64,000 bases of DNA from Candidatus Doudnabacteria bacterium (GTDB taxonomy: Bacteria > Patescibacteriota > Doudnabacteria > UBA920), in the NCBI GenBank assembly GCA_963768175.1, contig CAVYGQ010000001.1, positions 574,305-638,304 on the forward strand, given 5' to 3'. Shown one piece after another: positions 371 through 59,286 of this stretch. Positions within the stretch are counted from its first letter, which is position 1, and every line of letters begins with the position of its first letter. The translations under genes were made by a program, and so were the position numbers. The notes below the pieces were generated by a model. The model ran no database searches, had not been told where the DNA came from, and saw nothing but the letters and a program-made list of their open reading frames with translations.

Positions 371-2884
371 CTACGTATGCGAATTCGCAGTGTTCGTCGG
401 GTAGTTGACTATGAATACCGTACCGCTGTCGGCGCCTGAGCTTACCGCACCGACCAAACCGGCATTGCCGTTGACATCGATGAAGGTAAACAGAGTCGCA
501 TAGCCCATACCCACCGACAATGAGTTCGATGAGTTGGAACCAGGGTTGGTGACAGGGACAACAATGTTGTAGGTCTTAGAAGTACCTGCGGCAATGTTGT
601 TGTCGGTGCTCATCGGGACATTAACTGTACCGATGGCAGCAAAGCTCTGGGAGCCCGCTACCTGGCCGGTGACCGAGTCAATTAATTGCAGGGTGCCGCT
701 GGCGGTAACGCCAGAGCTACCTGTAATATTGAACGGAATTTGGGTAACCTTTACATTACCGGCCGCGTTAGCAGCAATGGTAATGGATCCCACGGTAACA
801 CTACCAGTGGTCAAAGCGTTGCCCGAAGAAGCAAGCGTCAAAGTCGGGTAAGAACCCACCAGGTCAAAGTAGTTGGAGGAAGCTTCCACCGCTATGCCCG
901 AGCTCGGGAGATAGGTGGTGGTGCTGCCGGAAAGATACTTGACGCGGATCAGGTTCAAACGGAATTGCTGGTTGGTCGGAACGCCGTTCAGACCTACCGG
1001 GGCAAAGCTCGCGGTTACCGGGACATCAACACCGCTGTAATTGGCCGGGACAGGAATGCTCAAGCCGGTTACGGTGGAAGATGCGCCAACCATTGCAGCA
1101 GTTACGCCGCCTACTGTCACGTTGGTGATAGAGACGTTGGAACCGCTGGCGTTGGTGGTGTCAAAATCCAATTCCTGGATGGTCGCGCCGCCATTGCTGG
1201 CGGTAAAGTTAAACGTAGCGACAGGCTGGTTGGTGCCGCCGCCGATGACAAAGGAAGCCACCGGGGAGGAAGTCTGCGGGGTCGGGTTGTTAATGGTACC
1301 ATTGCCAATGACAATGTTCTGGCCAGACAGCGGAGAAGCTGAGCTGTACAGGTTTACTGCCTGGGCGCTGGTGGAACCAACACCGCTGCCATACAAGGTG
1401 GTTTTAATACCAACCGGGCTGGTGACATTGCTGATGTCAGCATAGACATCTACAGTGGCAGTCTGGTTCGCCGGAACGGTAAAGTTCACGGAGAAGGTAT
1501 TGCCTGAAGACGGGTTAACCGGGGTTGTGCCGTTCGGATAATCCGGAGTCACAATGTACAAGTTAGCCAAGCTGTTCGGAAGATTAGTCGGCGTAGTTGT
1601 ACCGGTCAAACCAACGGTCAAGCTGCTGACTCTTACACCATCGGCATTGGAAGCCTGAATGACATAAGAACCAATCTTTTGCTTAACGGCGTTGGAAGAC
1701 ACAGTCTGGTTGGAATACGCGGTATTCACAGCCAAAGTGCCAGTGCTGGTCGTAACGCTCTGGGAAGGACCAACATACTGGTTACCGACAACACTTACAC
1801 CGTTAGCACCGGTATAAGTCGAGCAAGGAGCGGATACTGTGCAAGCTGGAGTGAGAGTGTAAGAAACTACGCCCTGCAAAGAATTTACAGGAGTTATCAA
1901 ATCAGCTTCGACAGTCGCCAAGTTGGAAGAGGAAGATAGGGTAGAATCGCCTTTCACAGATACCGTAACGGTTGTACCGGCCGGGACTGTGAACAGATTG
2001 GTGGAACCGAAATTGTAGACATAGGTAACGGGTCCAGCAGCTGAAGAAGTGGTTAACACAGCGCTTTGGGAAGAGCCAACCTGGCCGCCGTTTACATAAA
2101 CGGACAAGTTGTTAAAACCTTCGCCGCTGGCTACCGTGGTAGAACCAGCGTTAGTGCCGGTATAATCCAACTCTACAGCCAGATTTTGCACTTTAACATC
2201 TTCACCATAAGCCTTAATAGTCCATTGGCCCAAAGCTACCTGCGAAGCGTTCTTTACGAACTGGGTCGCGGTAAAGGTCGGGTCGGACTGGACGGAAATG
2301 GTGCCGCTGTTAATGGTTGTCGGCGAGTTCGCCGGGGCAACTTGGAATATAGCTGCGCCAGACTGCCATGTCATCGGGACATTAACGCTGTAGTTAGTGT
2401 CGTAGAAGATGGCATCGGCTGCCTGCTGTAAGGTGAATTCAAAGTTGTAGGAAGTGCCGGCTACAATGTCGCCGTTTAAGGACAACGTGTGGCCGCCGGT
2501 GTTTAGAGTTACCGGGCTGCCGGTTAAGTCAAAGATAACAACATTGGAATTGCTGCCGCTGTTGCTAATGCTGGCTGTTGAGCCGACCTGGGCGCCGTCT
2601 ATCATCAATTTGAGATTTTGGATGGCGCTGGCAGAGACGGAACCAATTTGCTTAAAGGCAATGTACTTCATTAACACCGAGCGCTGGCCGACGTTAATGG
2701 TGTCGCTCCATAATGTGGCATTCATAGTGCCGGCATTGATGGTGGAACCGGGGCCGGTTACGCTGGAGTTACTTGTACCGCTCAATTGAACGGTGGCCAA
2801 GTTGTTAACCGCAGCAATCTGGAACAGGTTGCCGGAAATGGAAGTAGTCATCGGGGAGCCGTTGGCAACCGTGAAGGAAGCCAA
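371..2884 (-). CDS. large Thr/Ser/Gly/Asn/Val-rich repetitive surface (adhesin/S-layer-like) protein, C-terminal segment of a fragmented >1200-aa secreted protein
   Basis: 837-aa ORF with low-complexity beta-repeat composition. Its frame stays open upstream to about 2988 and overlaps the next ORF. Confidence 0.55.
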   Translation of the reverse strand: MASFTVANGSPMTTSISGNLFQIAAVNNLATVQLSGTSNSSVTGPGSTINAGTMNATLWSDTINVGQRSVLMKYIAFKQIGSVSASAIQNLKLMIDGAQVGSTASISNSGSNSNVVIFDLTGSPVTLNTGGHTLSLNGDIVAGTSYNFEFTLQQAADAIFYDTNYSVNVPMTWQSGAAIFQVAPANSPTTINSGTISVQSDPTFTATQFVKNASQVALGQWTIKAYGEDVKVQNLAVELDYTGTNAGSTTVASGEGFNNLSVYVNGGQVGSSQSAVLTTSSAAGPVTYVYNFGSTNLFTVPAGTTVTVSVKGDSTLSSSSNLATVEADLITPVNSLQGVVSYTLTPACTVSAPCSTYTGANGVSVVGNQYVGPSQSVTTSTGTLAVNTAYSNQTVSSNAVKQKIGSYVIQASNADGVRVSSLTVGLTGTTTPTNLPNSLANLYIVTPDYPNGTTPVNPSSGNTFSVNFTVPANQTATVDVYADISNVTSPVGIKTTLYGSGVGSTSAQAVNLYSSASPLSGQNIVIGNGTINNPTPQTSSPVASFVIGGGTNQPVATFNFTASNGGATIQELDFDTTNASGSNVSITNVTVGGVTAAMVGASSTVTGLSIPVPANYSGVDVPVTASFAPVGLNGVPTNQQFRLNLIRVKYLSGSTTTYLPSSGIAVEASSNYFDLVGSYPTLTLASSGNALTTGSVTVGSITIAANAAGNVKVTQIPFNITGSSGVTASGTLQLIDSVTGQVAGSQSFAAIGTVNVPMSTDNNIAAGTSKTYNIVVPVTNPGSNSSNSLSVGMGYATLFTFIDVNGNAGLVGAVSSGADSGTVFIVNYPTNTANSHT

Positions 2885-2930
2885 TTGCGCTCCGACAGTC
2901 TGGCCGGAAATTTGTGCCGCGACGTCAACT

Positions 2931-3854
2931 CTAACAGAAATTTCGGCGGAGCCGGATAACGGTAAACAAACCGTTGGAATTGGAGAAGCTTACCTTGCCG
3001 TTGGAGAACGTACCGGCATCGGTGATGCGGTTGTTGCCCATGTAAAGGTAAACGTTGTTTAAGCTGGTGTCAGCCGAAACGCCAATTCTGTTAACCACAA
3101 CTTGGGTAACAGTGCCGCTGCCGCTAAAGGCAAAATGGGCAATGTCAGCACCGACTTGTCCGGGGCTGTTGTTGCTGAGGCTGTTGGAAACCAAAGTTCC
3201 CGCAGCCGGGGTGTCGGAAGCCAAAGAGGCCGTGACGTTGCCGTTAACCACGGGGGTGCCGCAGTTAGAGGTGCAGCCTGGTTGTGCGGCTAACGCAGTC
3301 GGGCTAAGTTGTCCGGCTACGCGGGTGGCCATAACTCCGGTTTGGGTCATGGCTTGGTCGGCGGCGTTGGCCGGAACGACTTTGCCAAAGGAATAGCCCC
3401 AGGAATTGAAGGTCGCGACATCCGGAATACCGAGTAATCCGGAGTTGCCGACTAATTGCACGGTGCCTTTGTTGTTAACTAAGGTGCCGGGCAAATGAGC
3501 CGCGGTGGTGTTGTTAATCAGCACGCTACCGGAAGCCATCCAGGAGACATCTCCTGCCATGGAGTTGGTAAAGCTAAAGCCAAGGCCGGTAAAGACCGCG
3601 GCTGAAGTAAAGCCAAATTTTTGGCTATTGCTGATTTCGTAGCAGGTGCCTTTATCGGAGCCCCTGTCGGAGCAGATAATGGAACCGTCCTGCGGCGGGA
3701 TGAAGGAACCCTGCGGTAAAGCAAGGTCTTCAGCGCTGGCGGCGACTACCTGGCTCCAAGAATTGAAGCCATAGGAAAGGAACGCGCCGGCGGAAGTGTA
3801 GGCCTGTCGGTTGCCATTTGGCATAATCATCCAGACAGTTCCGGAGGAGCTCAA
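2931..3854 (-). CDS. middle segment of the same fragmented surface protein (different frame)
   Basis: 307-aa ORF with the same composition. It overlaps the signal-peptide ORF upstream and the 837-aa frame downstream. Confidence 0.45.
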   Translation of the reverse strand: MSSSGTVWMIMPNGNRQAYTSAGAFLSYGFNSWSQVVAASAEDLALPQGSFIPPQDGSIICSDRGSDKGTCYEISNSQKFGFTSAAVFTGLGFSFTNSMAGDVSWMASGSVLINNTTAAHLPGTLVNNKGTVQLVGNSGLLGIPDVATFNSWGYSFGKVVPANAADQAMTQTGVMATRVAGQLSPTALAAQPGCTSNCGTPVVNGNVTASLASDTPAAGTLVSNSLSNNSPGQVGADIAHFAFSGSGTVTQVVVNRIGVSADTSLNNVYLYMGNNRITDAGTFSNGKVSFSNSNGLFTVIRLRRNFC

Positions 3855-4746: not shown

Positions 4747-4790
4747 TATTTCTCTGAAATTCTATCATTTCTGAGACTTTCCCACAACTA

Positions 4791-5537
4791 GAAGAGGTGT
4801 CCCCTCTTCCAGTTTAAATTTATGTTATAATCATACATAATATAGACATGCGCTACCGCGATTATAAAACTTTTGCGTCCGGGAACTATTACCATGTCTT
4901 TAACCGAGGTAATGGCAAAAACGATATTTATTTAAAATCCGAGGATTATAAAATTTTTATTTATCGTTTGAGAGAAAATCTTTTCCCCGTTACCGAATTA
5001 AAAACCGCCCAATCCAAATCGGAATTTAAATATAAAAGAAAATTGTTGCCTGACAATGCCTTTTCCCTTATCTGCTATTGCTTGATGCCCAACCATTTTC
5101 ACTTACTAATTAGACAAGATAGGGACGTTAAAGTCAGCAAGTTAATTCAAAAACTTTGTACCGGCTACGCGGTCTATTTCCAAAAAAAATACGACCATAC
5201 CGGCCATTTGTTCCAAGGAGCTTTTAAGGCTATTCATATTGAAAATGAAAGCTACTTAATGTGGCTTTCGGCTTATATTCATCAAAACCCTGCGGTCGCC
5301 GGTTTAGTAAAGAACCTTGAAGATTACCCATACAGCAGTTACTTGGATTACATCGGCAAAAGAAATGAAAACTTGTGTTCCAAAGATGTTATCCTGGACA
5401 AATTTAAAAGCCCGGACGATTATAAAAAATTTGTTGAAGATAGCGGAGAATTAATAAAACAACGAAAAGAAATAGAGTCTTTACTTTTAGACTAAGCGCA
5501 GAACAGGGGACACCTCTGGAAGAGGTGTCCCCTGTTC
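4791..5537 (+). mobile_element. REP-RAYT-REP unit: IS200/IS605-like HUH tyrosine transposase flanked by GAGGTGTCCCCTC-type palindromes
   Basis: Hairpin GAAGAGGTGTCCCCTCTTC at ~4791-4809. Perfect palindrome GAACAGGGGACACCTCTGGAAGAGGTGTCCCCTGTTC at ~5501-5537. Confidence 0.7.
4848..5495 (+). CDS. REP-associated tyrosine transposase (RAYT; IS200-like TnpA, HUH family)
   Basis: 215 aa with the HuH motif MPNHFHLLI and a downstream Tyr region typical of Transposase_17/RAYT. Flanked by REP hairpins. Confidence 0.75.
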   Translation: MRYRDYKTFASGNYYHVFNRGNGKNDIYLKSEDYKIFIYRLRENLFPVTELKTAQSKSEFKYKRKLLPDNAFSLICYCLMPNHFHLLIRQDRDVKVSKLIQKLCTGYAVYFQKKYDHTGHLFQGAFKAIHIENESYLMWLSAYIHQNPAVAGLVKNLEDYPYSSYLDYIGKRNENLCSKDVILDKFKSPDDYKKFVEDSGELIKQRKEIESLLLD

Positions 5538-5557: not shown

Positions 5558-6400
5558 TTAGGCTATCAGCGCATTCCAATCGTCAGCGAATTTTTCTGTG
5601 CCTTTGTCCGTAAGGTCATGGTGGATGTTATATCCCCGCCAGGGTTTGTTTAAATTTATTTCCTGATATGGCATTGGAGCTAACGCGGAATTTTGAAATT
5701 GGAAATTGGAAATTGGAAATTTCGCATCCGCCCACTTTTTTAGCACCTTCAGCGGCGCGGTAATAATATCCGCATCCAGCTCAATAGATCGCATAAAATG
5801 TTCCGTTGATCTTACCGAAGCAACCAAAACCTCAACGTGCTTGTCGCCGGGTTGATACATTTTTATAACATTCGCTATTAAGTCCATTCCATTCTCTCCT
5901 TTGTCATCCAAACGGCCGACAAACGGGGAAAGGAAGACATCGCCTTTTTTCGCTCCCCGCGTGGCGGCATAAACCGCCGCGGCCTGCTCCTGGCTGAAAA
6001 CCAACGTCATATTTACCCGCATACCCTCTTTTACGCTTATCTCGGCCGCCCTTAAACCCTCCGTAGTAGTCGGATATTTTATATGGGCGTTAGGAATCCA
6101 TTTAAAAAATTGCCTGCCTTGCTCCAACATTTGTTCGGCCGAGGTTTGTCTGTCAGCATAAACTTCTATGGAAACCGACCCTTGCGGAAGAAGCGACGAT
6201 ATTTCACCAACCACGCCTCGATAAAAATCCAGCAATTCTTGTTTGCTGAATTTTTTCCCCGCAGTCTGCGGATTTTTGGCAATAAGCGAAGGGTTGGTTG
6301 TTTGCCCATCCAAAAATCCTAAGCCAGACAAAGCCTCCCGCGTCTCCGCCGGATCGCCGCTGTCAAGGAAAATTTTTGTTTTTAATCCAATAAGTCTCAT
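5558..6400 (-). CDS. tal: transaldolase (Fsa/TalC-type)
   Basis: KIFLDSGDP...GQTTNPSLI transaldolase signature; 280 aa. Confidence 0.8.
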   Translation of the reverse strand: MRLIGLKTKIFLDSGDPAETREALSGLGFLDGQTTNPSLIAKNPQTAGKKFSKQELLDFYRGVVGEISSLLPQGSVSIEVYADRQTSAEQMLEQGRQFFKWIPNAHIKYPTTTEGLRAAEISVKEGMRVNMTLVFSQEQAAAVYAATRGAKKGDVFLSPFVGRLDDKGENGMDLIANVIKMYQPGDKHVEVLVASVRSTEHFMRSIELDADIITAPLKVLKKWADAKFPISNFQFQNSALAPMPYQEINLNKPWRGYNIHHDLTDKGTEKFADDWNALIA

Positions 6401-7246: not shown

Positions 7247-8275
7247 TTACTTCCCCTCCATCTCCTTCGTATATTGCCCCAATGTGGCTAGGCCGTTCAT
7301 TTTGGCGCGGTGCAGAAAAGCTTGTTGCGCGGCCGCGGCATTTTCCGCTTTGCCGTTCCAGATTTTTAGCGCGCTATCCTGCAGCGCGCGGCCATAAGAA
7401 AAGCTCAACTGCCAGGGCAATTCTCCTAAAAGATGCATGGCATTCAAATTTTCCGTTGCCTCAACTTCGCTCTGCCCGCCGGAAAGGAAAGCCTGCCCGG
7501 GCAAACCGTTAGGCAGTACTTTTTTAAAAAGCGCTACCGTGACCTCGGCAATTTGCGCAGCTGACAGTTTTTCCTCCGATTCTTTTCCCGGGATAACCAT
7601 ATTAGTTTTTAGAATCATGCCTTCCGGAACCACGCGTAAAGCCTGCAGTTCTTCAAACACGTAAGTCAAAGTTTTTTCACTGACTTCCGCACAACGGGCC
7701 GTACTGTGGTTGCCGTCCATCAGCACTTCCGGCTCCACCATAGGGACCAAGCCCGCCTGCTGGCAAGCCAAAGCGTAAGCGGCCAAAATTTTGGCATTTT
7801 GGCGGATGTTGCTCTTGGTGGGCAAATCTTTGCCGATGGTAATTACGGCCCGCCATTTGGCGAATTTCGCGCCCAAAATCACATATTCGGCCAGCCGCTT
7901 GGGCAAACCATCCAAACCTTTGGTCAATTTTTCTTCGGGCGATTCTTTAAAGCTTTCCGTGCCCAAATCCACCTTAATCCCCGGCAGTACCCCGGCCGCC
8001 TGCAATATGGAGATGAAACTCCGACCGTCTTTGGCAACTTGTCGGATGGTCTCGTCGTACATAATCGCACTGCTAATGTATTTGCCAATGTCGGGCGTGG
8101 TAAATAACATCTCCCGGTAAGACCGCCGGTAGGGTTCTTCGTTCGGCAAACCGATTTTCTCAAACCTTTTGCCAATGGTTCCCGTGCTCTCGTCCGCCGC
8201 CAAAATCCCCTTGCCCGGCGCGACCATGGCTTTGGCGATTTTGTTAAGTTCTTGGATTTTCGCTCGGTCTAACAT
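7247..8275 (-). CDS. fba: fructose-bisphosphate aldolase class I
   Basis: GILAADES Schiff-base aldolase class I signature; 342 aa. Confidence 0.8.
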   Translation of the reverse strand: MLDRAKIQELNKIAKAMVAPGKGILAADESTGTIGKRFEKIGLPNEEPYRRSYREMLFTTPDIGKYISSAIMYDETIRQVAKDGRSFISILQAAGVLPGIKVDLGTESFKESPEEKLTKGLDGLPKRLAEYVILGAKFAKWRAVITIGKDLPTKSNIRQNAKILAAYALACQQAGLVPMVEPEVLMDGNHSTARCAEVSEKTLTYVFEELQALRVVPEGMILKTNMVIPGKESEEKLSAAQIAEVTVALFKKVLPNGLPGQAFLSGGQSEVEATENLNAMHLLGELPWQLSFSYGRALQDSALKIWNGKAENAAAAQQAFLHRAKMNGLATLGQYTKEMEGK

Positions 8276-8305
8276 AAAAAGTTGAATTAATTTTTCAATA
8301 ATTCT

Positions 8306-8683
8306 TTAATCATTTATATTAACTCGGTATGCGCTCTCGTCAATAACTTCTATTAATAGCTCCTCTTCGCCTTTAGTCAGTTTGCGTTTTATGGCCTTTT
8401 CTATTTTATCAAAGAAAAAAAACGAAAGTTCAAAAAAAATATTCTTTTTCTCCAAAGTAAAACTCCTTAAGTTTAATCTGGCGGCTAAATCCTTTATTTG
8501 CCCATCGGTCAAAACCTCGGCGCTTTTTATTCCCCGAGCCCAGTCTTCTATAGCTTTGCCAACCGCGGACTCAACTTCCTTTCTCTCTTCTATTATTACC
8601 CTGGACGCCTGGGCTTGCTCCATAATTTCTTCCGGTTCGCGTCCTCCTTCTCTATGATGGTGCCAATGGCTGTTTTCTGCCAT
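8306..8683 (-). CDS. hypothetical protein
   Basis: 125-aa ORF, no recognised domain. Confidence 0.35.
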   Translation of the reverse strand: MAENSHWHHHREGGREPEEIMEQAQASRVIIEERKEVESAVGKAIEDWARGIKSAEVLTDGQIKDLAARLNLRSFTLEKKNIFFELSFFFFDKIEKAIKRKLTKGEEELLIEVIDESAYRVNIND

Positions 8684-8685
8684 AA

Positions 8686-9666
8686 TTATTTTTTTGAATG
8701 ATGATACGTTATTATGTATCTTACTGTCCCGCTCTGTCCGCGGATGACAATGGAATGCGTGATAATTTTACTATCTTGATACCGGACGCCTTGCAGCAAC
8801 GGGCCATCAATGACGCCGGTTGCGGTAAAGGTTAAAGTTTTTCCTTTGGCTAAATCGTTGACATTGTAAATTTTTGTAGTTGTCAAGCCAGCTTTTTTAA
8901 CTAACGATGCATGATGTTCGTCTTTGGGCTTAAAACGGCATAATAATTGCCCGCCGAGGATTTTTATTGCCACGCCCGCCAAAACCGCTTCCGCACTGGC
9001 ACCAATACCCATCAGCAAATCTATTCCGGACTCCGGCAGGCACGGCGCAATGCCGCCGGCCACGTCGCCGTCGGTAATTAAGCGCACGCGGGCGCCGGCT
9101 TTCCTAACCTCGCTAATGAGCTGCTCATGCCGCGGCCGGTCCAAAATGCACACGGTAATGTCGCCAACCTTTTTACCGAGCGCTTTGGCGGTATTTTTTA
9201 TATTAACCGATGTCGGCGCATCCAATTTAATAACTTTCGCGGCTTTGGGACCGGCCGCGATTTTTTCCATATAAGTGTCGGGGGCATTAAGCAAAGTTCC
9301 CTTAGCCCCGGCGGCAATGACGGTTATGGCGTTATAACGCCCATAAGCCACGCTATCGGTACACTCCAGCGGGTCTATGGCAAGATCCATGTGTGTTATT
9401 CTCCCCCTTGCAGAGGGGGAGCTAGAGGGGGTGGCTTTCCATCCGCGCCCGACTTTTTCCCCGTTATAAAGCTCGGCCGATTCGTCTTTGCTGCCTTCGC
9501 CGATTACCACGGTACCGGCAAAATCTATTTGGTTAAACCGGTCGCGCATTTCGTCCACGGCCGCGGCATCGGCCTTTTTAGCCTCGCCCTTGCCCACCCA
9601 CTTGGAAGCGGCAATCGCCGCCGCCTCGGTTACCCGCACAAATTCTAACGCTAAATTTCTGTCCAT
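8686..9666 (-). CDS. glpX: fructose-1,6-bisphosphatase class II (GlpX) carrying an in-frame palindromic insert
   Basis: MDRNLALEFVRVTEAAA...GEKVG...DPLE match GlpX. There are ~13 extra residues between EKVG and DPLE relative to E. coli GlpX, encoded by a CTCCCCC/GGGGGAG palindrome at ~9400-9434. Confidence 0.85.
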   Translation of the reverse strand: MDRNLALEFVRVTEAAAIAASKWVGKGEAKKADAAAVDEMRDRFNQIDFAGTVVIGEGSKDESAELYNGEKVGRGWKATPSSSPSARGRITHMDLAIDPLECTDSVAYGRYNAITVIAAGAKGTLLNAPDTYMEKIAAGPKAAKVIKLDAPTSVNIKNTAKALGKKVGDITVCILDRPRHEQLISEVRKAGARVRLITDGDVAGGIAPCLPESGIDLLMGIGASAEAVLAGVAIKILGGQLLCRFKPKDEHHASLVKKAGLTTTKIYNVNDLAKGKTLTFTATGVIDGPLLQGVRYQDSKIITHSIVIRGQSGTVRYIITYHHSKK

Positions 9667-9744: not shown

Positions 9745-9788
9745 AAAAACAAAAATCACATTATTTAACGGCCGTTAAATAATGTGAT
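9745..9788 (-). terminator. rho-independent terminator of metK
   Basis: Perfect palindrome CACATTATTTAACGGCCGTTAAATAATGTG followed by a U-run on the minus strand. Confidence 0.6.
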
Positions 9789-9798
9789 TTTAAGCTGT

Positions 9799-10971
9799 TT
9801 ATTTCCTGGCTTTCGCCATTTTTTTTAGTTCTCTGATTTTATCCGTTTTCTCCCACGGGAATTTTACGTCAGTACGGCCAAAATGCCCGTAGGACGCGGT
9901 TTGTTCGTAAATCGGACGCTCCAGATTTAATTGTTTGATAATGTCGGCCGGTTTTAGCGGAAAGATTTCTTCCACGATTTTTTCCAAACGGTCATCGCTA
10001 ATCCTGCCGGTACCGTAAGTATCCACCATGGCGGAAACCGGTTTGGCCACGCCAATGGCGTAAGCCAGCTGCACCAGACATTTTTTCGCTAAACCCGACG
10101 CCACCACATTTTTGGCAATATAGCGCGCGGCATAAGCGGCGCTGCGGTCAACTTTGGTCACGCACTTGCCGCTAAAACATCCACCCCCGTGCGGCGCATA
10201 GCCGCCGTAAGTATCCACAATAATTTTGCGCCCGGTGAGCCCCGCGTCCGCTGGCGGCCCGCCCAGCACAAACCTGCCGGTGGAATTAATAAAAATCCTG
10301 ATATTTTTGTTAAACCACTTGCCGAGCACGGGCTTTATAACATATTGGGTAATTTCGCCGCGCAATTTTTCTGTGGTTACTTCTTCGGAATGATGCGCGG
10401 CGATGACGACCGTGGTAACTCTTCTTGGTTTTCCATTAACATACTCAATGCTGACTTGCGATTTGCCGTCCGGCCGCAAATACGGCAATTTTTTATTCTT
10501 GCGTACCTCGGCCAGCTTGCGGGTTAAGCCATGGGCCAAAGAGATTGGCAGCGGCATCAGCTCCTTGGTTTCGTCGCAGGCAAAACCGAACATTAACCCC
10601 TGGTCACCCGCGCCCTGTTCCTTAAACTCACCCTTGCCTTCGTCTACTCCTTGCGCGATATCAGGCGACTGTTCATGAAGCGTGCTAATGACACCGACAT
10701 CGGAAAAACAAAAACCGTATTCCGGCTTGTCGTAACCGATTTTTTTAAGCGTCCGCCTAACCACGCTTTGGATGTCCACATAAGCCTTGGTGCGCGCCTC
10801 GCCGCCCACAACTACCAAACCAGTGGTGGCAAAACATTCTATGCCGGCGTGCGCCTTTTTGTCCTGCCTAAGCATTTCATCGTACACGGCGTCGGAAATT
10901 TGGTCGCAAACTTTATCCGGATGCCCTTCGGTTACGGACTCGGAGGTAAAAACGTAGCTCTTTTTGATCAT
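9799..10971 (-). CDS. metK: S-adenosylmethionine synthetase
   Basis: [20 protein letters not shown] and GGGAFSGKD-like motifs; 390 aa. Confidence 0.95.
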
Positions 10972-11071: not shown

Positions 11072-11335
11072 AAAAAACCGCCTATCGGCGGGTTGTAAAA
11101 TTATCTTCCCCGCTCGGGGCTAGAAGTAGCACCTTTCGTATGGGGGTCCCCAAAAATTAGGAGCGCAATTTCCGTAATGCTTTACGGAAATGAGCACGGA
11201 TTTTTGGGGAGAGGAGCAACTGCGGAGAGCTAAGTTTCCGATTTTTATCGGAACGAAAGCTCGAAGCAAGTTGCGACGAGGTTGCTGGCAGGTCATTGGG
11301 CTAGATCCCTCACTGCACTCTTGATAAATTATTTT
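11072..11335 (-). promoter_or_regulatory. SAM-I (S-box) riboswitch with a greatly enlarged P3 region and an intrinsic terminator, in the metK leader
   Basis: Minus-strand RNA contains TTATCAAGAGTGCAGTGAGGGATCTAGCCCAATGACCTGCCAGCAACC and GAAAGGTGCTACTTCTAG core motifs, a P4 hairpin CCCCGAGCGGGG, then the terminator CCGCCGATAGGCGGTTTTTT. Confidence 0.7.
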
Positions 11336-14137: not shown

Positions 14138-14200
14138 AAGTTTTCCTATGAAGACGGTCTTCTGGGGCTGCCCCAGAAGACCGTCTTCAAACGCGATGTT

Positions 14201-14968: not shown

Positions 14969-15010
14969 CGGCGTCATCCTGAGTCCGCCTCCGGCGGACG
15001 AAGGATCTCT
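14969..15010. repeat. copy of the dispersed GTCATCCTGAG...GAAGGATC hairpin repeat family
   Basis: GGCGTCATCCTGAGTCCGCCTCCGGCGGACGAAGGATCTC. Relatives at 15092-15163, 28031-28068, 31909-32007, 52334-52475. Confidence 0.6.
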
Positions 15011-15091
15011 ACTTTTAAACTTCTGATTAATTAATGTTAAAGTGGGGTAATTATAACCAAAATCGCGGTTTTCGTCAATTCCTGTTCTTTT

Positions 15092-15163
15092 GTCATTGCG
15101 AGGAGTCAGACGACGAAGCAATCTGACGCCAATGGCGTCATCCCGAGTGCATCCGAGGGATCT
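15092..15163. repeat. composite repeat: GTCATTGCGAGGAG...CGAAGCAATC hairpin plus GGCGTCATCCCGAGTGCATCCGAGGGATC unit
   Basis: The first half matches one arm of the large palindrome at 32776-32870. The second half matches the 28031-28068 and 52334-52475 units. Confidence 0.6.
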
Positions 15164-15361
15164 TTTAATTAGATTGCCGCGTCCCGACAAGCCGGGACTC
15201 GCAATAACAGCGCTGACTCTCGTCAATCAGCCAACAAAAAATCCCTTCCAACCCTTGAAGGGGGTGGCAAGGTCGTGGCGATGGCGCGCACGACCTTGCC
15301 TGAGATGAATCTGACGAAGCCGCGACGACGGCGCGTGCGAACTCTACCCGGGATGCAATTT

Positions 15362-15811
15362 CTAATCCAGATCTCGGAGACGAGAATGCGGACGCGACCT
15401 CTTGGCCGATCTCGTCAACCAACCAGGATATCGTTGTCCTTGGGGGATTTCGAATCCCTGGTCGTGAAGCGGCCTGCCTTCGTAATGAGCGGGGTCGAGA
15501 AACCCCGAGGGCCGAATCGACGGCCAAACTTCCTCGTCGAACAGCATCTCAGAGGCTGCTGCCCGCAAACGACGGAGAAATTCCTCATCCGGATGCTTCT
15601 CCAACGGACGTAAGTCCGAAGCGTCAGCGGCTACCTCAGTCTTCGTGACTGAGTTAAGCCTATCTCTAAGGCTGTAGCCTTCAAGGACTCCTTCCCAGTA
15701 AACCGGGCTCTTGATATTCGTATCCGGTGTACCATTGGCACCGTCAGCGATGCCTTTTGAACGAAGCCGGTTCAGCAGGAGCAGAATCCTGATGATCTGA
15801 AACTCAAACAT
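15362..15811 (-). CDS. hypothetical protein in GC-rich island
   Basis: ORF with ribosome-binding site AAAGAGGGT 6 nt before ATG (MFEFQII...). No recognised domain. Confidence 0.4.
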   Translation of the reverse strand: MFEFQIIRILLLLNRLRSKGIADGANGTPDTNIKSPVYWEGVLEGYSLRDRLNSVTKTEVAADASDLRPLEKHPDEEFLRRLRAAASEMLFDEEVWPSIRPSGFLDPAHYEGRPLHDQGFEIPQGQRYPGWLTRSAKRSRPHSRLRDLD

Positions 15812-16227
15812 TTCTATACCCTCTTTCAACTTGGATTGAACTACAAACACTAATCTGCCCACAAAACCTTACGGGCAATTTACTGTCTGCAGTTTTCTCT
15901 ATTCTATTTTAAAATTGCTTTTAATAAAAGTGGATAACTCCCCCGTATTCGTGTCACCCGCCTAGACTCGACGTCTAGTCGAGGCTGGTTCGTGTGCCAT
16001 TCGTATATTAGTGTCGCTTCTTTTCTCCAACCCGCCTACGAGACAGGAATGCTGGCTTGGATAAAAATCGTAAGATTGTTATCCAAATCAGCCTCGTGGG
16101 CGGATTGCAGAAAAGAAATTTCTCACTATCCCCTTCTCCCTTAAGGGAGAAGGTGCCCGAAGGGCGGATGAGGGGGTTAAATTTAAGGTATGGCGAGGGG
16201 CGGTGGATCGATGCTCTGATCCTATTC

Positions 16228-16335
16228 CTATCCGCCCCTGCCTCGCCGATGTTGCCAGTAGTTCAGGAAGTCTTCAAAGAGCGGCTCCCCATATAGCACC
16301 CAAACTACGAGTGCCACTAACTCGGCAACTTTCAT
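16228..16335 (-). CDS. 35-aa hydrophobic peptide
   Basis: MKVAELVALVVWVLYGEPLFEDFLNYWQHRRGRGG. Ribosome-binding site GGAAAGGAGGAG 6 nt upstream. Start overlaps the upstream stop (TGAgATG). Confidence 0.4.
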   Translation of the reverse strand: MKVAELVALVVWVLYGEPLFEDFLNYWQHRRGRGG

Positions 16336-16336
16336 C

Positions 16337-16450
16337 TCACTCCTCCTTTCCACTCTTGGCCACACACCAGACTACAAAGATAATTACTATCAGCAGTCCG
16401 GCGGCGGCCACTAGCAGTGGCTTGATGTTCTGTGCCCACGCCTCAGGCAT
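16337..16450 (-). CDS. 37-aa single-TM peptide
   Basis: MPEAWAQNIKPLLVAAAGLLIVIIFVVWCVAKSGKEE. Ribosome-binding site TAAGGAGGAGGG 7 nt upstream. Confidence 0.4.
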   Translation of the reverse strand: MPEAWAQNIKPLLVAAAGLLIVIIFVVWCVAKSGKEE

Positions 16451-16466
16451 GGAATTTCCCTCCTCC

Positions 16467-16934
16467 TTAGTGACGTATCTCCAGATGACGTGGCCAGACA
16501 AACAGTAGCACCCAAACCACGTAAGCCATCGGACGATGGCTAACTACGAACCGCAGGATGCGCCACAGCTTGAGCCGCCTTCGGAGGCGCAAGCGGAGGA
16601 TGCAAAGAAATCTTAGGTTGTCTTTCCCCGCCAGCATTCTGGGGACCGCCCGGAGTTTTTCCCGGGCCTCTTCCTGGTCAATCAGATGGAAGAGATAACA
16701 CGCCGAGATCGCCCCCGCCGGAATCGGCCAGGAGAGGAGCAAGAGCAGGCGAAGCCTGCCGATGCCGCCGAAAAACTTCCCGCTCTTCTCGCCGTCGAAC
16801 AACTTGATGACGGCATTTACCAAAGCTCCCCAGCGAACAGCGTCGCGGATTTGGTTGGCGAGTTTGACAATCGCCCAACCGAGAATGATGGCCACACAGG
16901 CCACCATGAGAAACAACACGGGAAGATTGTTCAT
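16467..16934 (-). CDS. 155-aa membrane protein (2 TM, Arg-rich C-terminus)
   Basis: MNNLPVLFLMVACVAIILGW... Ribosome-binding site AAGGAGGGCGGG before ATG. ATGA overlap with the upstream ORF. Confidence 0.45.
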   Translation of the reverse strand: MNNLPVLFLMVACVAIILGWAIVKLANQIRDAVRWGALVNAVIKLFDGEKSGKFFGGIGRLRLLLLLSWPIPAGAISACYLFHLIDQEEAREKLRAVPRMLAGKDNLRFLCILRLRLRRRLKLWRILRFVVSHRPMAYVVWVLLFVWPRHLEIRH

Positions 16935-17176
16935 CCCGCCCTCCTTCGCCGCGCGGTCCAAAACCACACGACTAACGTCACTTCGATTACCCGCTTGAGC
17001 CAGCCGTACAAGCTGACCCTGTTGCGCAGCGGCGGGACCGCTTCCTGAAGCCTTCTTTTGTCCCACCACGCCGGAAACACAAATATGCCGTAAAGCACCG
17101 CCGCAAGGGCGAATGCTAAAATCAACCCGAGCCGCTCCGGCTCGGTGGCAAAACCTGGCGTGCCTACGTCTATCAT
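16931..17176 (-). CDS. 81-aa membrane protein
   Basis: MIDVGTPGFATEPERLGLILAFALAAVLYGIFVF... Ribosome-binding site AAGGAGGA. ATGA overlap with the upstream ORF. Confidence 0.45.
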   Translation of the reverse strand: MIDVGTPGFATEPERLGLILAFALAAVLYGIFVFPAWWDKRRLQEAVPPLRNRVSLYGWLKRVIEVTLVVWFWTARRRRAG

Positions 17177-17331
17177 CCGATCCTCCTTCGCATGGCCCAA
17201 TACCATACGCCAAGCGTGGCACCGGCGTATTGCAACGCCAAGCCAATGATGACGAAGAGCCGGTAGATAACCCGACAGAGGTCGCCGATGAACTCGGTGA
17301 CCGTATCTACCGTGTCATAGTCTCGTTGCAT
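17173..17331 (-). CDS. 52-aa membrane peptide
   Basis: MQRDYDTVDTVTEFIGDLCRVIYRLFVIIGLALQYAGATLGVWYWAMRRRIG. Ribosome-binding site GGAGGTGG. Confidence 0.4.
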   Translation of the reverse strand: MQRDYDTVDTVTEFIGDLCRVIYRLFVIIGLALQYAGATLGVWYWAMRRRIG

Positions 17332-17491
17332 TCTTACCACCTCCGAACCTATAAATTTACCCTGAACCCGAATCCGCCTGGGGCGGATGAGTGGTTTAGG
17401 GCTAACACTATTTAAAAATTTGCAGGTTTGGGAGTAGAAGTAAGGGGCGGCGGATATAAATGCACTATGAATGTCTTGCCGCCCCAAAAGG

Positions 17492-17674
17492 TTACTTGAC
17501 TAAGAACATTATTGCAGCTCCCACCAGGAAGCCGCCGACGATGGCAAGCAGCGCCATCGCCATGTTCTTTTGGCGGCGATCTTCTGCCGCCTTTCTCGCA
17601 GCCGCTTCGGCCGCGAGTTGCTCTTCCGTCATTGCCGGCCGAACCGGCAACGACCAGACATCAAATTCCTTCAT
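17492..17674 (-). CDS. 60-aa tail-anchored membrane peptide
   Basis: MKEFDVWSLPVRPAMTEEQLAAEAAARKAAEDRRQKNMAMALLAIVGGFLVGAAIMFLVK. Ribosome-binding site AAAGGAGGGG 3 nt upstream. Confidence 0.45.
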   Translation of the reverse strand: MKEFDVWSLPVRPAMTEEQLAAEAAARKAAEDRRQKNMAMALLAIVGGFLVGAAIMFLVK

Positions 17675-17995
17675 GTCCCCTCCTTTCTCTCGGGGAATCA
17701 AAACCCTAAAATCAAGATACTGATTCCCCGAGAGGCAATTGTGTTGTATATTTTACTTCTGTTTTTATCTTTTTTCAACCCCATTAGAAACTTTATAAAA
17801 GTTCGGTTTTATTTTATTCATTATTTTTATCGGCAAAGCATTTGTTTTCAGTAAACCAAAGTTTAGGAAGTTTCTAACGGGGTCAACCACCATTTTCCTC
17901 CTACAAAAAAATGGGGGAATAAAACTGGTCATTAAAATAAGATAACTCATTTAACGACCAAATTTCTTCCCCCATTATTTGTTCAAAACTTCGGT

Positions 17996-18032
17996 CACAT
18001 TAAATAACGGCCGTTATTTAATGTGATTTTTA
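17996..18032 (+). terminator. orphan plus-strand intrinsic terminator
   Basis: Perfect palindrome CACATTAAATAACGGCCGTTATTTAATGTG followed by ATTTTT. No plus-strand CDS lies upstream. Confidence 0.4.
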
Positions 18033-24978: not shown

Positions 24979-25911
24979 CTACACTTGGCACTTGGGACAA
25001 AAACTCCCTGTCCTTCCGCCTATTTTAGTTGCCTCGATGATACTGCCACATTTTTTGCACTTCTGCCCTTTGCGGCCGTAAACAAAATGGAACTTCCCCA
25101 TTTGCCCCCAGCTGCCGTCAGTGCGCACAAAGTCGCCGACACTGGATCCTTTGGCTTTTATAGCTTTAATAAGCACAAGCTTTATCCATTTATATATGGC
25201 TAATAATTCTTTGCCGCTCAACGATGAAACCTTACGCGTTGGCCTGACGCCGGCGTGGAATAAAATTTCATCGGAGTAAATATTGCCGATGCCCGCCACA
25301 AAATGGCTGTCCATAAGCAGTTGCTTAATGGAAATTTTTCTCTTGTTGACTTTTCGCGCGGCCGCGCGAAAAGTCAACAAGGTATATTTTTTATCCAACG
25401 GCTCGGGACCGTATTCCTGCAATTCTCTGACTCGATCAAGCTCGCTCTCGCGCACTAACTTTAAGTAGCCGAATTTCCGAATGTCGTTGAAATAAAGATG
25501 GCTACCGTCTGTAAATGTAAAAACCACGTGCGTATGTTTGGAAGGCAAAAGTTCCAGCGGCGCCGTCAGCTTATTTAGTAATCGAAACTTTCCGCCAGTT
25601 CTTTTCCGTAAAGCTTTGTCCTCAAAAATAAACTGCCCGGTCATTTTAAGGTGGGCCAGCATAAAAAACGGACCCGAAAGATTGAATATCAACAACTTCG
25701 CCCGACGCTTAACCGATATAATTTTTTTTCCTTTTAGTAAACTTATAAACTTATCAGCCGACCGCTTATCGGCTTTCCTGATATTACTGGCGACTCCCGG
25801 GCCGACGGCAACCATTTTTGGCGCGTTAACCACAACCGATTTTATTGTCCGGTTTTTTAATTTGCGGTTAAGCTCGCCGGCGATAGTTTGGACTTCGGGA
25901 AGTTCAGGCAT
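24979..25911 (-). CDS. fpg: formamidopyrimidine-DNA glycosylase
   Basis: MPELPEVQTIAGEL N-terminus, H2TH region, C-terminal CKKCG...CPKCQ zinc finger. Confidence 0.85.
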   Translation of the reverse strand: MPELPEVQTIAGELNRKLKNRTIKSVVVNAPKMVAVGPGVASNIRKADKRSADKFISLLKGKKIISVKRRAKLLIFNLSGPFFMLAHLKMTGQFIFEDKALRKRTGGKFRLLNKLTAPLELLPSKHTHVVFTFTDGSHLYFNDIRKFGYLKLVRESELDRVRELQEYGPEPLDKKYTLLTFRAAARKVNKRKISIKQLLMDSHFVAGIGNIYSDEILFHAGVRPTRKVSSLSGKELLAIYKWIKLVLIKAIKAKGSSVGDFVRTDGSWGQMGKFHFVYGRKGQKCKKCGSIIEATKIGGRTGSFCPKCQV

Positions 25912-27577: not shown

Positions 27578-27621
27578 CGACACTAATACACGAATTGCAC
27601 ACGAATGACACGAATACAAAG

Positions 27622-27658
27622 ATGCCCATTGCGTTGCGCAATGGGCATCTTTGTATAA
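27622..27658. terminator. bidirectional intrinsic terminator
   Basis: Perfect hairpin AAAGATGCCCATTGCGTTGCGCAATGGGCATCTTT between convergent genes. Confidence 0.6.
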
Positions 27659-30962: not shown

Positions 30963-31000
30963 TTGTTGATTTTTTGCGCGGCCGCGCAAAAAATCAACAA
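30963..31000. repeat. 38-bp perfect palindrome TTGTTGATTTTTTGCGCGGCCGCGCAAAAAATCAACAA
   Basis: Immediately upstream of the comEC start. A near-identical palindrome lies inside fpg at 25343-25380. Confidence 0.7.
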
Positions 31001-57858: not shown

Positions 57859-59286
57859 ATGAATAAAACTTTACCTATCGTGGCAATTGTCGGCCAGCCG
57901 AACGCCGGAAAATCCAGCCTGCTGAATAAAATCGCTAAGCGGCCGCTGGCCATAACTTCCGACGTGGCCGGAACCACGCGTGACCGCCAATACGCGGACA
58001 CTTCGTGGAACGGCGTTGATTTTACTTTGGTGGATACCGCGGGCCTGTCTTTAAACCCGGGCAGCGAGCTGGAATTAAGCTTGCTCAAACAAATTCAAAT
58101 CGCGTTGGATGAGGCCGACGCCATAATTTTGGTTGCCGATGGTAAGCAACCGGCCAGGGCAATTGACCAGAATATTTTAAAAAAATTCCGGCAGATAAAA
58201 AAACCGGTTATGCTGGCAATAAACAAACTGGACGGCTCTGCTTTGTGGAATGAAAAAATCGCGGAATTCAGCTCTTTGGGCATAAAAAATCTTTTTCCGG
58301 TAAGCGCACTTAACGGCCGGGGGGTCGGCGATTTGCTGGATTGTCTAACCGATCTTTTAAAAACCCACGCGCCTGAAAGCAGAGGTGTCCCCTCTGCTGC
58401 AGAGGGGACACCTCTGCCAGAAAAGTCGATCGCCGTCTCCATTGTCGGCAAACCCAACGTGGGCAAATCCAGCATCTTTAACAAAATTCTAAAAGAAGAG
58501 CGCGTTGTGGTCTCTCCCCTCCCGGGTACTACCCGCACGGCCATAGACAGCCAAATAAAAATTGGCGGGGTTGATTATACTTTTATAGACACCGCGGGCC
58601 TAAAGAAAAAAGAGTTCCGGCAGGAGCAGCCGGACATTTTTGCCGGCTTCCAAAGCTTTAAATCCATACGGCGCAGCGATATTTGTTTTTTTGTTATTGA
58701 CACCTCCGAGGAAATTACCAAACAGGACCAGCGCGTGGCCCAAGAAATTATCGCTATGCAAAAAGGCTGTATAATCTTAGCCAATAAATGCGACCTGCTG
58801 TCTCCTTCCCTCCCCCCTGGGGGGAGGGTTAGGGAGGGGGTACAAAAAAAAGATGTGATCGGCAAACCCAACGATAATCAATACCAAAATATCCGCGACT
58901 ACATAAGCCACCACTTCCCGTTCTTATGGATGTGCCCTTTGTTTTTTGTTTCCGGCCTCACGGGAGAAGGCTTAAAAGAAGCTGTTGATACCATCAAACC
59001 GATTTGGGAGCGCCGCCATAAAACAGTTGACGCCGAAGCGTTAAAATCATTTTTGAAAACGGTTCTAGAAAAAAATCCGCCCAAACTTTTGCGCGACCAA
59101 AAAAAACCAAAAGTCATTGGCCTCAGGCAAATCGCCACCAACCCCCCGATGTTTGAACTCCTCGTCAACCACCCCGCAGCCATTTCCAACCAATTCCGCA
59201 AATTTTTAGAAAACTCTATAACCAAATATCTGGACTTCTACGGCACGCCGATAACTCTAAGGCTCCGCGGCAAAGACAAAACATAA
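57859..59286 (+). CDS. der: ribosome-biogenesis GTPase Der (EngA) with two in-frame palindromic inserts
   Basis: Two GTPase domains (GQPNAGKSSLLN; GKPNVGKSSIFN) plus KH-like C-terminus. Inserts at ~58379-58418 (REP palindrome) and ~58808-58840 (CCCTCCCCCC/GGGGGGAGGG). Confidence 0.9.
   Translation: MNKTLPIVAIVGQPNAGKSSLLNKIAKRPLAITSDVAGTTRDRQYADTSWNGVDFTLVDTAGLSLNPGSELELSLLKQIQIALDEADAIILVADGKQPARAIDQNILKKFRQIKKPVMLAINKLDGSALWNEKIAEFSSLGIKNLFPVSALNGRGVGDLLDCLTDLLKTHAPESRGVPSAAEGTPLPEKSIAVSIVGKPNVGKSSIFNKILKEERVVVSPLPGTTRTAIDSQIKIGGVDYTFIDTAGLKKKEFRQEQPDIFAGFQSFKSIRRSDICFFVIDTSEEITKQDQRVAQEIIAMQKGCIILANKCDLLSPSLPPGGRVREGVQKKDVIGKPNDNQYQNIRDYISHHFPFLWMCPLFFVSGLTGEGLKEAVDTIKPIWERRHKTVDAEALKSFLKTVLEKNPPKLLRDQKKPKVIGLRQIATNPPMFELLVNHPAAISNQFRKFLENSITKYLDFYGTPITLRLRGKDKT

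Follow-up and report, generated by a model that had tools for sequence, protein, structure and literature searches.

Candidate BoxC/PIT-type triplex repeats in frame within glpX and der of a Patescibacteria bacterium

Intrastrand-triplex motifs have been sorted into four classes, of which class II consists of a pyrimidine arm, a purine arm and then a reverse-Hoogsteen arm (Holder et al. 2015, PMC4666352). The ITxF rules for this class allow stems of 6–15 nucleotides (nt), a first loop of 1–6 nt and at most one triplet mismatch (PMC4666352). TM_ECO, earlier known as BoxC or PIT, is an abundant G/C-rich repeat of E. coli and belongs to the purine-motif class II repeats, which other Proteobacteria have as well (Hoyne et al. 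2000, cited in PMC4666352). Its consensus is CCCTCNCCC N3-6 GGGNGAGGG N3 GGGNGAGGG with TTA or CCG as the second loop, its isolated strand forms a stable triplex in vitro, and it is “always located intergenically” in strain MG1655 and linked with local sequence instability (PMC4666352). After some thirty years, BoxC/PIT in E. coli has no function, mover or in vivo triplex evidence attached to it. Here, we describe what appears to be the same design in a very distant, genome-reduced lineage: a 32-nt element inside glpX, and a sister element inside der, in a 64-kb stretch of DNA (hereafter the window) from an uncultured bacterium of the Patescibacteria (candidate phyla radiation, CPR), whose named homologues belong to Candidatus Doudnabacteria or “Patescibacteria group” metagenome-assembled genomes.

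In-frame selfish repeats are, like the class II repeat kind itself, already known: Rickettsia palindromic elements (RPEs) and intragenic repetitive extragenic palindromes (REPs) are short structured repeats that lie in frame in housekeeping genes, are translated, occupy tolerant sites and are polymorphic among relatives (Di Nocera et al. 2013, PMC3733652, and references therein). REPs are defined by a GTAG or CGTC tetranucleotide at one palindrome end (PMC3733652).

The glpX element occupies window positions 9401-9432 (+) and reads CTCCCCCT-tgcag-AGGGGGAG-cta-GAGGGGGT; the letters at 9400-9434 (+), TCTCCCCCTTGCAGAGGGGGAGCTAGAGGGGGTGG, are exactly those quoted in an earlier note on this DNA. 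Its parts, and the coding segment that contains it, are as follows.

9401..9408 (+): arm 1 (Y), homopyrimidine CTCCCCCT, 8/8 pairing with arm 2
9409..9413 (+): loop 1, TGCAG, 5 nt; CTGCA on the coding strand, kept in L082, L083 and L001
9414..9421 (+): arm 2 (R), homopurine AGGGGGAG, perfect Watson-Crick partner of arm 1
9422..9424 (+): loop 2, CTA, 3 nt; CTAG together with the first G of arm 3
9425..9432 (+): arm 3 (RH), G/A/T arm GAGGGGGT, mirror image of arm 2
9394..9441 (-): extra glpX coding segment, codons W76-T91, by which the gene exceeds short-loop orthologues by a net 13 codons; boundaries approximate

Handles beginning with L denote loci fetched for comparison. The palindrome described in the earlier note holds for arms 1 and 2, but the term misses the defining symmetry of the third arm that was also noted there: arm 3 mirrors arm 2, with T opposite one A, and repeats it in neither direct nor inverted form. 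The “TAG” mentioned there comes from the second loop and the G that opens arm 3, and is out of frame in both glpX and der. Because arm 3 mirrors the purine arm, each position of the element can form a G.GC, A.AT or T.AT triplet, i.e., 8/8 triplets are of the permitted reverse-Hoogsteen type, and this five-part plan means that one strand could fold as a hairpin with the third arm in the major groove. The hairpin part alone was modelled with ViennaRNA, which predicts pairing of arms 1 and 2 on both strands; its energy relative to composition-preserving shuffles (z -0.8 to -2.0) is not discriminating, because shuffled C-run/G-run sequences fold too. We rejected a G-quadruplex reading, since four G3 tracts are present in the der copy but not in the glpX copy or in most family members, and since the position-specific A/T mirror pattern would be left unexplained.

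The host open reading frame (ORF) at 8686-9666 (-) is intact, encodes 326 amino acids (aa) and matches Pfam FBPase_glpX, the class II fructose-1,6-bisphosphatase. Around the insert the protein reads ...EKVGRGWKATPSSSPSARGRITHMDLAIDPLE, with the triplex core translated as T79-R89. The earlier note had proposed an in-frame addition of about 13 residues relative to E. coli GlpX, and indeed the sole BLASTP gap against the K-12 protein is the 13-residue segment WKATPSSSPSARG (residues 76-88); HMMER returns the same 13-residue surplus against M. tuberculosis GlpX 6ayy. The insert is located in a variable loop just before the conserved DLAIDPLE segment, and the conserved and catalytic segments of the protein are all present and intact. 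In an AlphaFold2 model based on 59 homologues, the mean predicted local distance difference test score (pLDDT) was 81.7, while residues 81-88, the core of the insert, scored <50, consistent with a flexible, probably disordered and presumably surface-exposed loop rich in Pro, Ser, Gly and Arg. Gene and element are identical in L081, a Logan assembly possibly derived from the same reads. Since an orthologous in-frame element is also present in four other metagenome or genome assemblies, the glpX element is not an assembly artefact; orthology was seen at the DNA level in L082, L083 and L001.

The second copy lies in der, where an ORF of 475 aa at 57859-59286 (+) carries CCCTCCCCCCTGGGGGGAGGGTTAGGGAGGGGGT at 58808-58841, in agreement with the earlier note.

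58808..58841 (+): der-2 triplex element, CCCTCCCCCC t GGGGGGAGGG tta GGGAGGGGGT, in frame

It is translated from residue 317 as SLPPGGRVREGV, and combines 10/10 Watson-Crick pairs and a 1-nt first loop with 9/10 permitted triplets. The likeness between the two inserts suggested earlier thus stands at the level of plan, as both share the succession of arm, spacer and third arm. Given that arm length, arm sequence and loop all differ between them, they are family members rather than recent copies of each other. The closest Der relatives (76-87% identity) have inserts of the same type (S-L/P-S-P-M-Q-R-G-G-R-V-R-E-G), whereas more distant ones have an unrelated linker in its place. Elsewhere in der, at 58379-58417 (+), the inter-domain linker contains a 39-nt perfect inverted doublet in frame (GCAGAGGTGTCCCCTCTGC t GCAGAGGGGACACCTCTGC), whose core is that of the hairpins flanking a transposase-like gene described below and whose core peptide GVPSAAEGTPL is identical when read from either strand. 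This is a REPIN-like element (REPINs being REP doublets) in coding sequence and belongs to a family distinct from the triplex motif.

Both window copies have class II stems and first loops (8/8 pairs with a 5-nt loop in glpX, 10/10 with a 1-nt loop in der-2) and a third arm antiparallel to the purine arm. Their family resembles BoxC in plan and polarity: a C-rich 5′ arm is followed across a loop by its G-rich complement, and then, beyond a second loop of 3 nt that is frequently TTA, by a mirror arm made of G, A and T. It also resembles BoxC in a size of 32-37 nt, an occurrence singly or in inverted pairs, and a variable presence among close relatives. In relatives, the in-gene copies in transaldolase (tal) of L001 (10493-10525) and in glpX of L084 fit the TM_ECO consensus exactly. 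The L001 transaldolase copy, CCCTCTCCC cct GGGAGAGGG tca GGGTGAGGG, is 89-92% identical to chromosomal sequence in 4544/5426 E. coli genomes, e.g., CCCTCTCCC ctta GGGAGAGGG tta GGGTGAGGG in the holC-pepA spacer; der-2 has a weak match (85% identity, 100 genomes). What sets these elements apart from BoxC is the host, which is a member of the Patescibacteria rather than a proteobacterium, and the location: about half of the copies collected here are in frame in conserved genes, including the two in the 326- and 475-aa ORFs of the window, while TM_ECO copies in E. coli MG1655 are intergenic. The likeness to RPEs is one of shared behaviour alone, namely in-frame insertion into functional protein-coding genes; RPEs have a greater length and an unrelated sequence. 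A REP is a simple imperfect palindrome that bears a GTAG or CGTC tag at one end and has a cognate transposase gene, and neither RPEs nor REPs have a mirror third arm. Homopurine-tract mirror symmetry and the same triplet chemistry also characterize H-DNA. H-DNA arises from duplex mirror repeats under supercoiling, whereas the extra inverted arm found here lets a single strand provide all three strands. Judged by their sequence, the glpX and der elements are therefore best placed as variants in the BoxC/PIT class II intrastrand-triplex class, and they show that a class known to be only intergenic in E. coli can also lodge in conserved proteins, at loops that tolerate it.

A chance origin of the three-arm motifs is excluded. 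Against 100 dinucleotide-preserving block shuffles, in which we counted G/C-rich, pyrimidine-first hairpins with a stem ≥8, the window contains 4 such hairpins and 2 full three-arm motifs, compared to 0 and 0 in the shuffles. Across 2.09 Mb, i.e., the window plus the fetched loci, mostly from related Patescibacteria although several are not close relatives, there are 47 hairpins and 25 three-arm motifs compared to ~1 and ~0.1 per shuffle, with several of these elements being orthologous and hence not independent. The heptamer CTCCCCC taken alone is not enriched in the window (13 occurrences for 7.7 expected).

The third arm follows a mirror rule. With at most one bad triplet allowed, it is present after 25/47 pyrimidine-first hairpins; 15 of these 25 arms fit only as a mirror repeat, and the other 10, being symmetric, do not discriminate. 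None fits only as a direct repeat (0/25), and on this count we rejected the readings in which the third arm is a direct repeat or pairs with arm 1 as a second Watson-Crick partner. A mirror arm would be met at a random place with a probability of 8e-4. In 21/25 members the second loop measures 3 nt, and polarity is strict, with 47 pyrimidine-first to 14 purine-first hairpins and 25 class II to 0 class I motifs. The triplet relation is kept across at least 17 different arm sequences, and in glpX of L083 and L001 T:A:A is replaced by C:G:G at matching positions in all three arms. That so many arm sequences obey the triplet rules is hard to explain unless a three-arm fold is constrained, and this co-variation suggests that maintenance acts on the fold formed by the three arms.

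The wider family that the earlier note had anticipated is found in relatives, where the class occupies many unrelated coding and non-coding sites: about half of the 27 listed motifs are inside long ORFs (glpX, der, tal and the transketolase gene tkt), and the others are intergenic, often as inverted pairs. Copy density is 2 in the 64-kb window and 2-4 per 20-kb locus in relatives. On viral contigs, a loose pattern (CCCCC N1-7 GGGGGRG N5-9 GGGGGT) returned at least 120 matches, on apparently unrelated contigs. The window also has a pyrimidine-first hairpin at 16130-16155, within a region (~15000-17900) of higher G+C with no convincing long ORF or Rfam hit.

Several observations point to mobility. 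L281 has near-identical copies, with the same arms and loop, at unrelated sites (2692 and 16239), and L223 likewise has two near-identical copies at unrelated sites. In L085, tkt and glpX share a ~60-nt composite element whose non-palindromic ends are conserved and whose nested hairpin varies, with ~45 non-palindromic bases in common. Taken with presence and absence among close relatives, these copies suggest an element that moves, in line with the mobile family proposed earlier, although a transposition signature is not seen at the copies inspected.

The GlpX loop itself appears to be a recurrent insertion site. The earlier note had let its case hang in part on whether GlpX orthologues share the same loop length, and they do not: among the closest 120 proteins listed (72-100% identity), 70 have a short loop of 7-8 residues (x-G-K-G-P-x) and 50 have an insert there. 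About 18 of these 50 inserts are of a Pro/Ser...Arg/Gly type, in which a pyrimidine-purine hairpin or a triplex motif is translated, a further 13 are “ADKSARY” peptides, and 19 are of other kinds. At the DNA level, the “ADKSARY” insert of L086 is a classical GTAG-tagged REP, reading GTAGCGTGCCGATttATCGGC on the other strand. A crude neighbour-joining tree that leaves out the loop mixes filled with empty alleles and places the query as sister to an insert-free protein. A scan for GlpX in metagenomes yielded mostly distant relatives among the matches listed, ~8 of them at ≥70% identity. Lineage-specific inserts of a similar kind are also found in transaldolase, transketolase, aldolase and MetK of relatives. 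From its sequence signature, the repeat class appears to be frequent in this Patescibacteria lineage, in intergenic DNA as well as in recurrent permissive loops of the housekeeping proteins GlpX, Der, transaldolase and transketolase.

Other repeats share these sites. The GTAG-tagged “ADKSARY” REP fills the same GlpX loop in L086 (3879-3962), L003 and L208, with a further element nested in its loop in L003 and additional sequence in L208. The C-terminal linker of tal in the window, at 5696-5719 (-), consists of three tandem copies of a 7-nt unit, which reads TTTCCAA on the coding strand; at the same site, L207 has a different 7-nt repeat, and L001, L208 and L085 have triplex motifs. In L085, gene calling divides the aldolase gene fba (7309-8476) into two overlapping ORFs exactly at an insertion of two pyrimidine-purine hairpins (7601-7664); the gene may be frameshifted or a pseudogene, or the repeat may have been misassembled.

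Overall, we favour the view that the glpX element is a dispersed, structure-constrained and probably selfish or neutral repeat, kept in permissive protein loops, and we regard this as somewhat better than an even bet. Under this scenario, the repeat would be copied to new sites by a trans-acting activity, probably via single-stranded DNA; in coding DNA it would persist only where both the reading frame and the protein fold tolerate the insertion, and the insert would do nothing specific for GlpX. We also infer that the triplex would fold in vivo and that the insert would be neutral for the enzyme.

A number of points weigh against this view. The window copies are outside the strict TM_ECO consensus, with 8-nt arms of a different sequence in glpX (CTCCCCCT as first arm) and, in der-2 (CCCTCCCCCC as first arm), a third arm, GGGAGGGGG, that does not fit; the window glpX copy has no match in E. 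coli genomes. In E. coli, the TM_ECO triplex was not detected in vivo and no function was found (PMC4666352). Neither target-site duplications nor terminal inverted repeats are visible at the copies inspected, no transposase or other enzyme was found linked to the triplex motif, and the copy count for the source genome (2 copies) covers the 64-kb window only. The three-arm co-variation could in part reflect descent from a few master copies. Finally, nearly all filled GlpX alleles, in which the Trp codon lies outside the repeated element, start with G-W-K/R/N, whatever the inserted family, compared to G-K-G-P in empty ones, which hints at one old insertion followed by turnover, or at a target preference, over many independent hits.

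A bolder version is that the BoxC-like repeats of Patescibacteria are an active family, selected for its structure and repeatedly colonizing the same loops of essential genes. We hold this only tentatively, as a possibility that is on the whole doubtful. If it is true, the co-variation, the class II polarity and the 3-nt second loop would be the first comparative in vivo evidence for a triple-helical fold that is recognized and propagated, and the in-frame copies would offer a natural system for finding the BoxC mover, unknown since the 1990s. Because the elements lie in frame in highly conserved enzymes, well-aligned protein sequences provide a background on which to trace their gains, their losses and their exact boundaries. 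In practice, triplex and REP-type loop inserts also explain many lineage-specific Pro/Ser/Gly/Arg-rich loops in CPR proteins, and such inserts need to be recognized in annotation, alignment, phylogeny and the judgement of apparent frameshifts. In the literature, we found no description of triplex repeats in Patescibacteria combined with in-frame placement in recurrent enzyme loops and many rule-obeying arm variants, and nothing specific on such inserts in CPR bacteria.

The window also encodes a candidate mover of a different type. The ORF at 4848-5495 (+), 3.2 kb from glpX, matches Pfam Y1_Tnp (E 1.4e-11), and its only NCBIfam match is the REP-associated tyrosine transposase (RAYT), at 56 bits and thus below the cut-off of 80. 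An element of REP or REPIN type could in principle be moved by such a RAYT-like Y1 (HUH, IS200-type) transposase, which would recognize the folded single strand and cut and paste it at the replication fork. In its favour, the gene is single-copy, adjoins tRNA-Pro, is syntenic in the window, L208 and L086, and is flanked by hairpins, as RAYTs are; the core of these hairpins recurs as inverted doublets elsewhere, including the one in der at 58379-58417; triplex motifs are frequently arranged in inverted pairs, an arrangement also seen in REPINs; and intragenic REPs are documented (PMC3733652). However, the flanking hairpins (4786-4814 and 5501-5537) belong to another family, being purine-first, with the core AGAGGTGTCCCCTCT (GGGGACACCTCT hairpins), compensatory changes in relatives and no mirror arm, so that the flanks lack the triplex motif expected of a REPtron. 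In 80 Patescibacteria loci with a RAYT homologue, a set from which the source genome is absent and in which the best match is 89% identical, no listed triplex motif abuts the gene, the nearest being ~800 nt away (L211). Membership of the GTAG-REPs was rejected for the window element as well, given that its CTAG (TTAG in der) stands between arms 2 and 3 rather than at an end, and BoxC in E. coli has no known mover and is tied to no transposase (PMC4666352). We therefore give low weight to mobilization by the RAYT-like gene, which the different hairpin family and the lack of adjacency make unlikely.

Three further alternatives, namely a local origin, a regulatory structure for glpX and an adaptive peptide, each conflict with some of the observations. 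In the first, the element would arise in place, through template switching or slippage at a stalled fork in a length-tolerant loop, with complementarity kept by templated repair within the element. The same loops are indeed hypervariable in length with other low-complexity DNA, as in the 7-nt repeats of the tal linker (5696-5719), the window's glpX and der elements are not closely similar in sequence, and Holder et al. link such motifs with local instability (PMC4666352). Yet the product of template switching is an inverted repeat, not a mirror repeat in which A has been replaced by T; unrelated sites of one genome have near-identical copies that agree even in their loops (L281, and tkt and glpX of L085); and the in-gene copy of L001 is ~90% identical to E. 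coli BoxC, all of which render a local origin quite unlikely.

A structure selected at this site for its effect on glpX expression, for instance through mRNA stability or through pausing of ribosomes, replication or transcription, would account for three arms kept through triple compensatory change among four glpX orthologues, and the glpX mRNA strand is able to form an 8-bp G/C hairpin. Against it, 58% of close orthologues are without any insert and others hold unrelated repeat families at the same loop, the motif class is also present in unrelated genes and in intergenic DNA, and purine-motif triplexes do not form in RNA (PMC4666352), with the purine-motif strand being the antisense strand of glpX. 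We consider such a role improbable. That the extra peptide is instead an adaptive feature of GlpX (an interaction, regulatory or anchoring loop) to which the DNA symmetry is incidental is very improbable, since, although the insert is in frame, is kept in several species and has Trp nearly always at the start of filled loops, the insert peptides are highly diverse and track the DNA repeat families, the structural model has low confidence over the insert, one sister taxon may have it while the other lacks it, and the DNA symmetry is far beyond chance.

The window has further features of interest outside the triplex family. Long perfect or near-perfect palindromes of 32-45 nt, mostly intergenic, are located at 9752-9791, 17995-18026, 25342-25381, 30963-31000, 14147-14191 and 27614-27656; they form at least two families (TCACATTAxxTAACGG|CCGTTA... 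and TTGTTGAyTTTTyGCGCGG|CCGCGC...) and may be operators, terminators or further repeat families. An S-adenosylmethionine (SAM) riboswitch (Rfam RF00162, 51 bits) lies at 11098-11330 (-), upstream of metK (9799-10971). Finally, the ORFs at 371-2884 (-) and 2931-3854 (-), of 837 and 307 aa, jointly match single proteins of 1185-1342 aa in L001, L207, L208 and L085, and the gene at 371-3854 thus appears to be split in the source genome.

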